Below, one piece after another: positions 25,504-53,022 of a DNA stretch of 53,022 nucleotides. Below the pieces are notes generated by a model. That model was not told the DNA's origin. It made no database searches and saw only the letters and a program-made list of their open reading frames with translations. A program made the translations under genes and the position numbers. The first letter of the stretch is position 1. Each line of letters begins with the position of its first letter. The stretch comes from a virus (lineage: Duplodnaviria > Caudoviricetes): IMG/VR virus record IMGVR_UViG_3300020452_000997, positions 1-53,022 of that record; one strand, written 5' to 3'.

Positions 25504-25631
25504 GAGTCTTGCAGCCTTCGTTTTTAGTATTCCGCTACGGTAGCCTTAAGCATCAGACATACCACAGGAGGCATTATGCACCCGAAGTTTAGAGGTTTTT
25601 CTCTTTTTGGTATTGTTTTGAATAAAATTTG

Positions 25632-26081
25632 ATGCTTGTCTCGCGGGACTCTGGTCCAGTTTACGAAAGAATTTCAGATTATTTGTTCAACATGTCTGCC
25701 CTAAATCGTAGAGAAGCTCGTCAGCAATGGCGAGACGCTATTAAATCTTCCTGGAACAATCGTTGTGCTTACTGTGGTCGTCCACCCATTGATGATAACA
25801 GTCTAACAATGGATCATGTAAGGCCAAAGTCTGCTGGCGGAGAAGACCGCACAAGCAACTGCATACCAGCCTGCCAGGAATGTAATCAGAAAAAATCAAG
25901 CCAGGAGTGGGTGTTTTGGTTCAGGATGCAACCCTTTTACACTATCGAGGCAGAGTGGCGCATCCGTCAATGGCTCTCTCGGGGGCTTTCTGATTTTGGC
26001 GCGTATGACGAAGAAGACGCTAAAGTACTGGATGACTACATTAATTCCATAGGCATCGAATGGCCTATGGGAAAAGAGTAA
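25632..26081 (+). CDS. HNH endonuclease
   Basis: CAYCG...LTMDHVRPKSAGG...NCIPACQECNQKK; opposite strand within the tail operon. Start codon uncertain. Confidence 0.9.
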   Translation: MLVSRDSGPVYERISDYLFNMSALNRREARQQWRDAIKSSWNNRCAYCGRPPIDDNSLTMDHVRPKSAGGEDRTSNCIPACQECNQKKSSQEWVFWFRMQPFYTIEAEWRIRQWLSRGLSDFGAYDEEDAKVLDDYINSIGIEWPMGKE

Positions 26082-37871: not shown

Positions 37872-38027
37872 CTATTCACTATTTTTTAATAATTCCAAAG
37901 ATGAAAAGCAAAATCAAAGAAGACATAACAAAAGCAATCGCCATGACTAAGACGCATAGTTACGCTTGATTTTACCTTTTTAAGCAACCAAATTACACGT
38001 AAATATAATTAATGTGTTGAGCATAAC

Positions 38028-38051
38028 AAAAACCCCTCTTGTGAGGGGTTG
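38028..38051 (-). terminator. Terminator after the DUF4278 gene
   Basis: AACCCCTC-ACAA-GAGGGGTT plus TTTGTT. Confidence 0.75.
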
Positions 38052-38065
38052 AAGCGAGTAATCAG

Positions 38066-38239
38066 CTACTTAATATAACCAACCCCTCGATAGTTGCATT
38101 CTAGAGGTCTGTCAAGGGTTGGAGGTTGATGAGCAGAAATGTATGCAGAACCCCTGTAAGTCTTGCTCATAAGAAATTGAGCTTTGCTTAAGCTGGTTTG
38201 ACGCTTATGCTGTTCTTTAATGATTTGTAGCACGTTCAT
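38066..38239 (-). CDS. DUF4278-family small protein
   Basis: MNVLQIIKEQHKRQTSLSKAQFLMSKTYRGSAY...NYRGVGYIK (57 aa) with two YRGxxY motifs. Not in the ORF track. Confidence 0.8.
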   Translation of the reverse strand: MNVLQIIKEQHKRQTSLSKAQFLMSKTYRGSAYISAHQPPTLDRPLECNYRGVGYIK

Positions 38240-38257
38240 GGCTTCTCTCCATGAAAG

Positions 38258-38313
38258 CCTAGGTCCCCGTCGTATGGCCTAGGTCGGACTGCACTCCCAA
38301 AGAGTCGACGATT
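38258..38313 (-). ncRNA. Downstream-peptide (glutamine-II) riboswitch, variant P1
   Basis: CGUCG-ACUC-UUUGG-GAGU-GCAGUCCGA-CCUAGG-CCAUA-CGACG-GGGA-CCUAGG: P1, P2 and pseudoknot pairings all present; TGgTAAAAT promoter at 38320-38328; DUF4278 gene downstream. Confidence 0.8.
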
Positions 38314-38331
38314 CTATTTATTTTACCATGG

Positions 38332-38778
38332 TCAGAACAACAGCAACTGAAGATGGTTCCTGACGATCACTCTATCATGGATCTGGCTGTCAAGTAAGGC
38401 AACAGTAGCGCCCTTGCCGACGAAACAAGTATCCTTCTGGCCATTGTGGCCAAGGAAAAGGCGCACACCCTCGGGGATAAGGTCTAGAGCTCCTGCAGCA
38501 TCCAAGAGACCATTCAGTCGCTCTCTAGTGGTCCTTGACGGCCTTCCCTTCGAGTCAAAAAAGCCTCCGTTGCGAAGTGTCAAGCATTGAGAGGAAAGCT
38601 CAAAAATCGAGATCCCGAACAGAAGGACCTCGAAGGTTAGCTCTTGAGTAAGCCTGTTCTTCTTGACCGAGACTGTGGTGTTCCCCTTTGTTTCGCTAAG
38701 AAGGGTAGAGGGGTTTCTAATAAAGTCCGATAAGCGATCGGCTGCGAACTGGGTAAGTGTGCGGTTTGATCTAGTCAT
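38332..38778 (-). CDS. Conserved hypothetical phage protein
   Basis: GNTTV...V.L.G..I...SRTTRERLNGLL motif. Confidence 0.7.
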   Translation of the reverse strand: MTRSNRTLTQFAADRLSDFIRNPSTLLSETKGNTTVSVKKNRLTQELTFEVLLFGISIFELSSQCLTLRNGGFFDSKGRPSRTTRERLNGLLDAAGALDLIPEGVRLFLGHNGQKDTCFVGKGATVALLDSQIHDRVIVRNHLQLLLF

Positions 38779-38779
38779 T

Positions 38780-38995
38780 TTAAAATCCTTGGTTGTTTTG
38801 AAGCTCGGCTTCAGACTCGAAGTCTACATAAAGGTCTTCTTGAATTGCCTCGCACGAAAGAAAGTCTATCATATTAAAACGAATAAATTTCATTTCTTCG
38901 TACAAGTCTTCATCTATTTCAACCTTGCGAACGTGCTCAGCTATTAAATGGCAAGCATTCTTAAACTTTAACGATTTGTCATAAATCTTTCCCAT
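38780..38995 (-). CDS. Hypothetical acidic protein
   Basis: Operon packing. Confidence 0.6.
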   Translation of the reverse strand: MGKIYDKSLKFKNACHLIAEHVRKVEIDEDLYEEMKFIRFNMIDFLSCEAIQEDLYVDFESEAELQNNQGF

Positions 38996-48748: not shown

Positions 48749-49480
48749 TCAAAACAAGCTGGGCTGGCTTCTCCCGTTAGACAATTTGTCAGCGCCTTCA
48801 ATAAGCTCATCACTAATGCTTTCCCAATAAGTACCGCGGCATCCTGAAAGCTTCAACAGTTTGTCAACCGCCGAGACGGGCAATCGTGAACCCGTACCAC
48901 TTAGGTAAATCTCTAATTGATTCAATACCTCGACATTCTCTCCTAGATTGTCAATGGTTTCTTTTGCCATCTGCATATAAACTGAACCAAAATCGATCTC
49001 GTGAGGCTCTAAAGCTTCTGTAGGTTTAGCTTGTTCCTTTAATTCAAGAGGCGGACCTGAACACACTTTGCGAATCTCTTGCCATTCCTGACAATCAATG
49101 TTCAACTCCTTCGCAATCTCGATGTCGCTAGACCCACGATAAAGCAGTTTTCGTCCCTTGACCCAGCGCTCTCTCATTTTGTGAGATAGTCTCATAGCAT
49201 AAGTTCGATCCCTAACCCAGTGAAGTAGCTCACCGCGTATTGTAGGTATGGCTAAGCTAGAAAATCTCATACTTTTACCCGTTACGGGATGAGGCTTGGA
49301 AGGATCATAGCGGTAAGCCGCCTTACACAGCCCTTCAAATGCGACTGATTCTAAAGTGTGATATTCAATACCAGTCGTCCTTTGTAGACGCCAAGCCTCT
49401 CTTCTTGCCAAGTTGAGGTTGTCCGAAGCAAGCTTCTGCTGCTCCTTGCTCATTTTGAATTTAGCGGTACGACGAGCCAT
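48749..49480 (-). CDS. Phage RNA polymerase sigma factor (group 3, SigF/SigB-like)
   Basis: EGLCKAA.RYDP...FSS.A.PTIRGELLHW.RD region 2; EIAKELNI region 3. Confidence 0.9.
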   Translation of the reverse strand: MARRTAKFKMSKEQQKLASDNLNLARREAWRLQRTTGIEYHTLESVAFEGLCKAAYRYDPSKPHPVTGKSMRFSSLAIPTIRGELLHWVRDRTYAMRLSHKMRERWVKGRKLLYRGSSDIEIAKELNIDCQEWQEIRKVCSGPPLELKEQAKPTEALEPHEIDFGSVYMQMAKETIDNLGENVEVLNQLEIYLSGTGSRLPVSAVDKLLKLSGCRGTYWESISDELIEGADKLSNGRSQPSLF

Positions 49481-51987: not shown

Positions 51988-52176
51988 TTAGAACACTCCT
52001 GGAATGATCTGACCAGTAAGAGCATAGGCTCCAATGGCTGCAATAAATCCTAGCATTGCAAGTCGTCCATTAAGGCGTTCAGCTGTTTCGTTGTGATTCA
52101 TGGGTTCAGTTAAATAAATTTCTGGTTCGATGGCATACATGTTTATGCGTCCACCGTCTTCTTTTACTACAGTCAT
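51988..52176 (-). CDS. hli: High-light inducible protein
   Basis: AERLNGRLAMLGF...TGQIIPGVF. Confidence 0.95.
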   Translation of the reverse strand: MTVVKEDGGRINMYAIEPEIYLTEPMNHNETAERLNGRLAMLGFIAAIGAYALTGQIIPGVF

Positions 52177-52181
52177 TGTGT

Positions 52182-52433
52182 TTAAGATTTGTTTTTGTAG
52201 TTTGCAGAATTGTCAGTAGGAGGAGAGCCTGCGTTAACAGTCATGTGTTGTTGATAGCTCAGTCTTTTGTACCGATTAGTGAAAATATCAGGTAGCCAGT
52301 AGGTTACTTGCCATTGTATCTCGCTATTTAGCCTGAGGTGCTCCTCCAGTGAATGATGGAAAACCCCGAGCTGCATGTAACCATCATGAGTTATTAGATG
52401 GTTACCGCAGTCGACTATAAAGTGATCAGCCAA
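52182..52433 (-). CDS. Hypothetical protein between psbA and hli
   Basis: 83 aa, overlaps the psbA stop. Confidence 0.6.
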
Positions 52434-53022
52434 TTGAAGGCGCCACTAAGGCCACAGGCGTGGAGCTAGCTGTTGCAAGATCAAGCGGAAAGTTGTGGGC
52501 ATTACGCTCGTGCATGACTTCCATTCCGAGTCCTGCTCGGTTGAGGATGTCTGCCCAGGTGTTGACGACGTGGCCGTCACTGGATTGGATGGATTGATTG
52601 AAGTTGAAGCCGTTCAGATTGAAAGCCATAGTTGACACACCTAATGCTGTAAACCAGATGCCGACAACAGGCCAAGCAGCAAGGAAGAAGTGAAGACTCC
52701 GGCTATTGTTAAAGCTGGCGTACTGGAAGATAAGCCGACCAAAGTAGCCGTGAGCAGCAACAATGTTGTAAGTCTCTTCTTCTTGTCCAAATTTGTAACC
52801 GTAGTTCTGGCTGACTGTTTCTGAGGTTTCACGAATCAATGAAGATGTAACCAAGGAGCCATGCATTGCAGAGAACAACGCACCTCCGAACACTCCTGCA
52901 ACTCCCAACATGTGGAAGGGGTGCATCAGGATGTTGTGCTCAGCTTGGAACACCAACATGTAGTTGAAGGTTCCAGAGATGCCCAGGGGCATTGCATCAG
53001 AGAACGAACCCTGACCGAAGGG
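52426..53022 (-). CDS. psbA: Photosystem II D1 protein (C-terminal part; 5' end outside window)
   Basis: [14 protein letters not shown]...HNILMHPFH...[10 protein letters not shown]...[14 protein letters not shown]. Confidence 0.99.

Follow-up and report, generated by a model that had tools for sequence, protein, structure and literature searches.

A probable type 2 glutamine riboswitch cassette in an S-CBS2-like cyanosiphovirus

The linear virus record IMGVR_UViG_3300020452_000997 of IMG/VR, with 53,022 bases and an estimated completeness of 76% (hereafter the window), carries on its minus strand, at positions 38328-38024, a compact unit that is likely to be a working phage-borne type 2 glutamine riboswitch cassette of the kind known from marine picocyanobacteria. 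Its parts follow one another in the order of a -10 box, a structured leader, GGAG, ATG, an open reading frame (ORF), and a terminator hairpin. A sequence-only reading of the window had described a self-contained unit of promoter box, RNA, small protein, and terminator, and all four parts were recovered at the coordinates given, on the minus strand. Elements of this type have been described before, and the window holds a phage-specific sequence variant. The parts are listed below with the basis of each in brackets; PK denotes the pseudoknot, and the aptamer is numbered after Huang et al. (PMC6698751).

38320..38328, minus strand: extended -10 box TGgTAAAAT (sequence; conservation in the clade)
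38258..38313, minus strand: Glutamine-II riboswitch aptamer (RF01704), 56 nucleotides (nt) (Rfam covariance model, 44.6 bits)
38306..38310, minus strand: PK 5' strand C1-G5, CGUCG; consensus CGUUC (numbering as above)
38293..38305, minus strand: P1 hairpin ACUCUUUGGGAGU, short, 4-5 pairs, A6 pairing with U17 (Rfam match, fold, covariation)
38284..38292, minus strand: linker strand GCAGUCCGA, holding G18 and C19 (G, C, A, and G invariant in 67/67 sequences)
38258..38283, minus strand: P2 hairpin CCUAGGCC / GG-A-CCUAGG with the 9-nt loop AUACGACGG (Rfam match, fold, covariation)
38268..38273, minus strand: A35 and PK 3' strand C36-G40, A-CGACG; consensus G-GAACG (Rfam match, allele comparison)
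38235..38255, minus strand: start-site hairpin UUCAUGG / CCAUGAA (centroid fold)
38247-38250, minus strand: Shine-Dalgarno sequence GGAG (sequence)
38237-38239, minus strand: AUG start codon (sequence)
38066..38239, minus strand: 57-codon DUF4278-like / phrog_545 peptide gene with two YRG motifs (ORF, profile matches, coding constraint)
38024..38050, minus strand: intrinsic terminator with an 8-pair stem, a 4-nt loop, and a U-rich tail (predicted hairpin at 38050-38031, then a T run)

Aptamer and micro-protein gene

The Rfam covariance-model search assigned positions 38313-38258 to RF01704 (Glutamine-II) with 44.6 bits against a gathering score of 33 (E 1.1e-7), in agreement with the Downstream-peptide-type RNA proposed earlier, and the match was repeated in a search of the virus's own genome. 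RF01704 was the sole Rfam family to reach its gathering threshold across the whole window, and the same search gave no match in the window to RF01739, the type 1 glutamine riboswitch. The aptamer sits in the 5' leader of the small 57-codon ORF, and an interval of 18 nt separates its end from the AUG. RF01704 was formerly called the Downstream-peptide motif, and its class, ligand, structure, and link to DUF4278 have been published (PMC2864571, PMC6212724, PMC6698751). In the structure, as described in the cited passages of Huang et al. (PMC6698751), the three helices P1, PK, and P2 are coaxial, the PK is formed by C1-C5 with G36-G40, and there are two triples, G18>G2:C39 and G35>A37:U4, together with a long-range pair, C19:G41. 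Glutamine is contacted by C1, G40, C39, and G18, and G18 and C19 form the floor of its pocket. The Discussion of that paper argues that ligand-induced stabilisation of the PK is the key event and notes that the PK of type 2 corresponds to P1 of type 1.

For a structure alignment, 67 distinct sequences were drawn from phages, viral contigs, metagenomes, and hosts. The pocket bases C1, G2, U3, G18, C19, A33, A38, C39, G40, G41, and G42 are all present in the window and are invariant in 67/67 aligned sequences. In this set, restricted beforehand to sequences that pair in P1, in P2, and at positions 4 and 5 of the PK (a choice that tilts the overall pairing figures towards structure), 97.2% of the cells in P1, PK, C19:G41, and P2 were paired, and 13 of the 18 pairs were changed on both sides, including all four P1 pairs and seven of the eight P2 pairs. 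The covariation score was 0.536 against 0.198 in shuffles; none of 500 shuffles reached 0.536, and slid partners gave at most 0.123. Compensatory changes in P1, P2, and PK were also observed inside the phage clade. Judged by these substitution patterns, the RNA is a phage-borne Glutamine-II aptamer that is under selection and has its ligand pocket intact.

The comparison with the crystal structure also changed the naming of two helices. The helix CGUCG/CGACG, which the sequence-only reading had called a variant P1, does pair and does represent a compensatory change; it consists of C1-G5 with C36-G40, joining the 5' strand to the P2 loop, and is therefore the five-pair PK rather than P1. The CCUAGG strands that had been taken for the pseudoknot form the stem of P2, and their palindrome is not kept, since relatives have CCCAGG/CCUGGG and other pairs.

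The ORF (38239-38066) encodes a peptide of 57 amino acids (aa) with the two YRGxxY motifs already reported, TYRGSAY and NYRGVGY. Over its full length the peptide matched phrog_545, a family of unknown function (E 2.1e-11). When 1.84 billion representative proteins were searched with a profile, 84 clusters were found at E <= 0.001; the peptide family is a tight one of 17 clusters, 57 aa long in nearly every case, with an invariant AQFLMSKTYRG...YRG. DUF4278 matched 17/17 members of this subfamily at E <= 0.01 (best 4.2e-6), which bears out the proposal that the aptamer precedes a DUF4278-type gene, and no Pfam family other than DUF4278 matched the window peptide. Among 12 distinct ORFs of the clade, the differences at codon positions 1, 2, and 3 numbered 945, 644, and 1993, respectively, and in the core (aa 19-37) 504 codon changes were synonymous versus 135 non-synonymous. 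The codon-position bias and the synonymous excess indicate that the ORF is under protein-level selection. In the AlphaFold2 model a helix spans residues 3-26, with low confidence elsewhere (mean predicted local distance difference test score, pLDDT, 64), and the peptide-family profile found no match among PDB chains at E <= 10.

Pseudoknot alleles, promoter, and leader

The PK allele of the window, CGUCG/A-CGACG (C4:G37, G5:C36, and A35), departs from the consensus CGUUC/G-GAACG at pairs 4:37 and 5:36. These are exactly the two variable PK pairs of Huang et al., away from the glutamine contacts; in the cited part of that paper, U4:A37 and C5:G36 are the only PK nucleotides that are not more than 97% conserved (PMC6698751). 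In the host family reached via one cyanobacterial bin, RF01704 was found in 74/121 genomes, and a pattern with nt 34-37 left free gave 196 matches in 139/301 host genomes. Among the 150 of these 196 matches that were listed, the allele was G-GA in 102, A-GG in 34, G-CA in 14, and A-CG in none. Twenty host loci were picked by the 3' strand alone, a test that is free of the pairing-filter bias of the 67-sequence set, and all 20 had the matching 5' strand (CGUCC in 10/10 with A-GG, CGUUG in 10/10 with G-CA); both single changes are therefore ordinary host alleles. The window joins the two, and the same CGUCG/A-CG combination was found in the viral contig L022 and in the contig L031.

The CGUCG/A-CG allele was detected by the strict pattern in 0/401 genomes of the host family, a sample of 401 species genomes from one family, so that absence from hosts is not proven. 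A looser allele pattern gave 14 matches in the same genomes versus about 29 for a reversed control, and the six inspected had neither the 5' strand nor P2. In viral contigs other than the window's own record, the CGUCG allele pattern was found in one contig, again that of L022; the loose version of the pattern hit at least 117 stretches, two of which passed a crude structure filter and one of which, on the contig of L022, was real. In metagenomes, 57 stretches matched and 13 were judged real by eye, each followed by a ribosome site and a peptide ORF beginning with MNVL or MSVL. The C-terminus of a phage gene of 148 aa, which also precedes the window unit, lay just upstream in 12 of these 13 contigs. 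Together with the 0/401 hosts, this implies that within our samples the CGUCG allele marks a phage lineage, and the sequence comparison indicates that CGUCG/A-CGACG is a lineage-specific, structure-preserving allele with the ligand pocket untouched. Since contig L023, of the same peptide subfamily, has the CGUUG allele, the change from U4:A37 to C4:G37 probably arose within phages.

Nucleotide 35 varied together with pair 4:37. It was G in 49/49 sequences with U4:A37 and A in 18/18 with C4:G37, with no exception among the 67 sequences, and nt 35 had no part in any of the sequence filters. This covariation fits the triple G35>A37:U4 given in the cited passages on the crystal structure (PMC6698751), and the four natural PK alleles with the covarying nt 35 provide an independent confirmation of that triple. 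In addition, the host allele CGUCC/A-GGACG (L067-L076) accompanies a different small protein of 33 aa (MVNMYFNG...LTYRG), implying that riboswitch allele classes track peptide families.

The extended -10 box TGgTAAAAT of the sequence-only reading (38328-38320) gained comparative support: TGNTANNNT stands 18-20 nt before C1 in 9/9 distinct sequences of the CGUCG clade despite their differing flanks. The transcript is predicted to start about 2-4 nt before the first paired base of the aptamer. The box at 38328-38320 was missed by a consensus promoter scan because no -35 element accompanies it, and TGGTANANT was not enriched in the window (3 matches versus 5.15 expected).

The upstream regions were further compared for GTA-N8-TAC, which we take to be the consensus of an NtcA-type box. 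It was present in 27/27 consensus-type host units, starting 17-20 nt before C1, in 7/9 CGUCC units, and in 7/9 CGUUG units, where it lies at -34 to -37. No GTA-N8-TAC was found within 45 nt upstream of the window aptamer, and one of the nine sequences of its clade has it; it is kept in S-CBS2, S-CRES2, L011, L211, L222, and L274. From this distribution we infer a loss of NtcA control in the window clade. The unit of Prochlorococcus MED4 has a perfect NtcA site over its transcript start, from which Klähn et al. inferred repression in the cited part of their paper (PMC6212724). The host units (L037-L086) showed two promoter layouts: in CGUUG units a TAGATT-like -10 box lies between GTA-N8-TAC and the aptamer, and CGUCC units resemble the consensus type with a distance of 17-20 nt.

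Between the aptamer and the ORF, the predicted start-site hairpin of 6-7 pairs covers the AUG and the first two bases of the Shine-Dalgarno sequence GGAG. It is predicted in clade members as well, where its 5' strand changes only so as to keep pairing with the fixed AUG, and in thermodynamic models of the window clade it coexists with P1 and P2. Three alternative pairings in the leader (GGCUUU/GAAGCC, AUGG with the loop CCAU, and the 5' strand with AACG of the ORF) were judged by eye to be too short or not conserved. The CGUUG-type units of both phages and hosts (L025, L032, L077-L086, L002, and L004) share CACUGUGGAG after P2, and its ACUGU can base-pair with GCAGU of the linker, the strand containing G18 and C19. 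By its sequence, CACUGUGGAG would compete with the ligand-bound fold in a more obvious way and is a candidate for an expression platform that the window is without. Downstream of the ORF, the terminator of the earlier description was found as a hairpin at 38050-38031 followed by a T run, and terminator-like hairpins of differing sequence followed the ORF in 4/4 units checked (the window, L022, S-CBS2, and L031).

Related units in phages, metagenomes, and the literature

A blastn search of phage records with the unit found nothing related, and one with a consensus-type viral aptamer found S-CBS2 only. A tblastn search with the peptide found seven phage records, which correspond to four distinct phages (S-CBS2, PSS2, S-CRES2, and S-CRES1). 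In all four, RF01704 lies directly upstream of the peptide gene, with 66 bits in S-CBS2 and 47 bits each in S-CRES2 and S-CRES1; the match in PSS2 is divergent (30.8 bits, under the cut-off, E 1.6e-5). The identity to the window peptide is 46% in S-CBS2, 33-37% in the S-CRES phages, and 42% in PSS2. The S-CBS2 gp099 locus, S-CRES1/2, and the PSS2 gp038 locus thus resemble the window in having the same cassette and the same peptide family. They differ in that S-CBS2 has the consensus PK and GTA-N8-TAC, and S-CRES and PSS2 have CGUUG/CAACG; none has the double change.

The RNA is unannotated in the records of S-CBS2, S-CRES1/2, and PSS2, where S-CBS2 gp099 and PSS2 gp038 are each called "hypothetical protein". 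In S-CRES2 (L002:3326-3778) an annotated coding sequence, gp45, covers the riboswitch-peptide locus on the opposite strand, and in S-CRES1 (L005:1420-1665) the locus carries no annotation. The real unit in both consists of the aptamer and a 55-aa ORF, which in S-CRES2 reads against the annotated gp45. The unit is syntenic in S-CBS2-like phages; in both S-CBS2 and S-CRES2 it occupies the corresponding stretch downstream of the portal gene.

The peptide gene was also present in five additional viral contigs. RF01704 was found at E <= 0.01 in four of the five, three of them above the cut-off, and the aptamer of the fifth looked degenerate by eye. Scanning viral contigs with a single protein yielded just two matches, both short and partial, and a strict aptamer pattern hit 14 stretches in viral contigs, one of which was a true RF01704. 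In the genome collection, 3/3 contigs had both the aptamer and the peptide, two of them from Proteobacteria-labelled bins, with phage-type neighbours. These two, L031 (82 kb, Proteobacteria bin) and L033 (11.8 kb, Gammaproteobacteria bin), carry the cyanophage-type unit, L031 with the 148-aa gene as well, and seem to be phage contigs that were put into the bins of unrelated bacteria. Together with its peptide gene, promoter, and terminator, the type 2 switch forms a stable, selected part of a cyanosiphovirus group that includes cultured members. With culturable carriers (S-CBS2, S-CRES1/2, and PSS2), the gain from reading glutamine and the role of the widespread DUF4278 micro-proteins become directly testable.

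Riboswitches are generally considered uncommon in phages. The abstract of Klähn et al. places glutamine riboswitches "exclusively" in cyanobacterial genomes, and the word "phage" does not occur in the main text of that paper (PMC6212724). Its supplement lists phage-type domains (T4_Gp59_N and Phage_T7_tail, for example) among the genes downstream of environmental aptamers (PMC6212724), implying that some phage copies were in that data set, undiscussed. McCown et al. mention two glutamine aptamers in two cyanophage genomes, the cited passage not stating their type (PMC5473149), and glnA-type switches have been reported in T4-like cyanophages, pelagiphages, and phage Melnitz (PMC9004378, PMC9964418). 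Our literature searches on glutamine riboswitches and cyanophages turned up no account of a type 2 switch in siphoviruses, of the four PK alleles, or of the nt 35 covariation. The element itself will not surprise a specialist; its phage-lineage allele, the absence of an NtcA box, and its occurrence in phages that can be cultured add up to a modest, testable story.

Compared with the Yfr6/PMM1846 leader of MED4 (type 2), the window RNA has the same succession of 5' strand, P1, linker, and P2 with a pseudoknot to the loop. It shares with MED4-type host units the invariant pocket bases, a downstream YRG-repeat peptide of about 55-60 aa, and an own promoter and terminator. Unlike them, it lies in a siphovirus, has CGUCG/A-CGACG for CGUUC/G-GAACG and a short P1, is without GTA-N8-TAC over the promoter, and differs in the sequence from P2 to the start, which forms the start-site hairpin. 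With type 1 (glnA RNA, RF01739; the gifB/IF17 leader of Synechocystis) it has the ligand pocket and the DUF4278 association in common, but type 1 is, in the passages cited, a three-way junction without a pseudoknot (PMC6212724, PMC6698751) and the window RNA is of type 2.

Proposed mechanism, alternatives, and genomic setting

We infer glutamine binding, the use of the promoter, the direction of control, and the role of the peptide as follows. Host RNA polymerase would start at the extended -10 box, and the transcript would open almost directly with the aptamer. Glutamine would stabilise the PK helix between the 5' strand CGUCG and CGACG of the P2 loop, and this stabilisation would alter the translation start of the DUF4278 micro-protein, the small hairpin enclosing its ribosome site and AUG. 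The terminator would close the unit, and the peptide would be made according to the glutamine, that is, nitrogen, level of the infected cell. By analogy with host elements, the phage probably reads the nitrogen state of its host through this switch. The direction would most likely be an increase, as in the MED4 type 2 element, where reporter output rose after ammonium addition in the cited experiment (PMC6212724); on this analogy, it is reasonably likely that glutamine switches the window unit on.

Several observations weigh against the reading as a working glutamine-responsive cassette. The aptamer score of 44.6 bits is well under that of usual host copies (60-75 bits), the window peptide itself scored 18.7 bits with DUF4278 (PF14105), under the cut-off of 25.3 (E 0.0023), and the alignment behind the pairing figures had been filtered as described above. 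The minimum free energy of the leader was no better than that of shuffles (z -0.06). When the PK bases were blocked in models of the window clade, access to the Shine-Dalgarno sequence and the AUG was unchanged, the probability of the AUG being unpaired staying at 0.00 either way; with no ligand-dependent change in the models, the ON direction is not derivable from the window sequence. In RNA data, two contigs of the marine metatranscriptome X14 fell on the upstream gene but none covered the unit, and two other RNA runs yielded nothing; this outcome counts neither for nor against transcription of the unit.

A score below that of the hosts and a short P1 might also be expected of a decaying, functionless fragment taken from a host. 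We regard this as very improbable, because the phage clade shows compensatory changes in P1, P2, and PK, a strong codon-position bias, and a conserved promoter box and terminator, because the unit is syntenic in S-CBS2-like phages, and because the relatives have no frameshifts or stops in the ORF and no unpaired helix substitutions. Equally improbable is a ligand other than glutamine, which the sequence-only reading had raised for the variant and to which the two PK pairs and nt 35 off consensus and the modest Rfam score might point. The altered positions are the only PK ones without strict conservation and are remote from the pocket in the cited structure (PMC6698751), and each change occurs singly in many host copies before ordinary DUF4278 genes. 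C1, G2, U3, G18, C19, A38, C39, G40, and G41 are all kept, and with every glutamine-contacting base in place a new ligand is unlikely. A gentler possibility, compatible with the reading as a glutamine switch and offered tentatively, is a phage-specific retuning, in which the double G-C PK allele and the loss of the NtcA operator would lead to switching at lower glutamine and to escape from NtcA repression, in fit with the infected cell. The CGUCG/A-CGACG allele of the window, L022, L031, and 13 metagenome contigs was not found in the 401 host-family genomes, and GTA-N8-TAC is present in 27/27 consensus-type host units versus 1/9 of the clade. The nearest-neighbour energy of the isolated 5-bp PK duplex is -5.3 kcal/mol for CGUCG versus -3.8 kcal/mol for the consensus and -3.5 kcal/mol for CGUUG of the sibling phages, and PK stabilisation is the key event according to the Discussion of Huang et al. 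(PMC6698751). However, the host allele CGUCC/GGACG is even stabler (-6.2 kcal/mol), so that a stronger PK is not phage-specific, and isolated duplex energies leave out the triplex and the remaining fold. The six phages and contigs named above, S-CBS2 and S-CRES2 among them, retain GTA-N8-TAC, and the host sample covers one family. An altered glutamine threshold of the variant is thus possible, and the natural PK allele series offers a ready set for relating pseudoknot strength to switching threshold. In a bolder version, which we consider unlikely, the S-CBS2-like lineage would have evolved its own allele, with a PK strengthened by two G-C pairs and a matched triple, the NtcA operator lost, and a new start-codon hairpin; it would respond to glutamine alone, at a threshold unlike that of every host copy, and time a micro-protein acting on host nitrogen metabolism in the course of infection.

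As for the peptide, the sequence-only reading had the phage modulate glutamine synthetase (GS) or nitrogen flux, and the peptide might be an IF17-like inhibitor of host GS that shuts down GS at high glutamine. The peptide family matches DUF4278, a part of IF17; type 1 riboswitches control the GS inactivating factor IF17 in Synechocystis; and the cited text of Klähn et al. names the short proteins IF17-like and leaves GS binding open (PMC6212724). In the passages cited, however, DUF4278 is the N-terminal part of IF17 and dispensable for GS inactivation, and the short DUF4278 proteins are without the C-terminal IF7-like part that bears the critical residues (PMC6316151, PMC6212724). Judged from its length of 57 aa and its DUF4278-only match, the phage peptide probably differs from IF17 in the same way, being without the C-terminal, IF7-like part whose arginines are needed to bind GS (PMC6316151). 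It had no Pfam match beyond DUF4278 and matched no solved structure by sequence. Control of GS by such factors was, moreover, earlier ruled out for marine picocyanobacteria, co-evolved binding being still conceivable (PMC6316151, PMC6212724). With DUF4278 dispensable in IF17, the IF7-like part missing from the short proteins, and this earlier exclusion, we rate GS inhibition as doubtful.

At the DNA level, the window resembled only the cyanosiphoviruses S-CBS2, S-CRES1-3, and PSS2 (eight records, all with 60-80% identity), and on this likeness it is an S-CBS2-like cyanosiphovirus. PHROG matches in the window included psbA, hli, the small and large terminase subunits, a sigma factor, primase, exonuclease, ribonucleotide reductase, dCTP deaminase, portal, scaffold, major head protein, tape measure, and tail proteins. 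The riboswitch-peptide unit is located about 1.4 kb downstream of the portal gene and immediately after the 148-aa gene (38778-38332); 18 nt separate the stop codon of that gene from the aptamer. Three genes distant from the unit were placed by PHROG match.

48749-49480: sigma factor gene (phrog_36098)
51988-52176: hli gene
52426-52992: psbA, truncated by the window end

The two short contigs of X14 lie on the 148-aa gene, at 38357-38509 and 38636-38790, and may derive from DNA carry-over. In S-CBS2 (L001:2695-3204), a homologue of the 148-aa gene (41% identity across 154 aa by tblastn) runs on the other strand from the annotated gp094, and gp094 may have been annotated on the wrong strand. 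In addition, an HNH endonuclease gene (25629-26081) lies inside the tail gene block of the window on the opposite strand.

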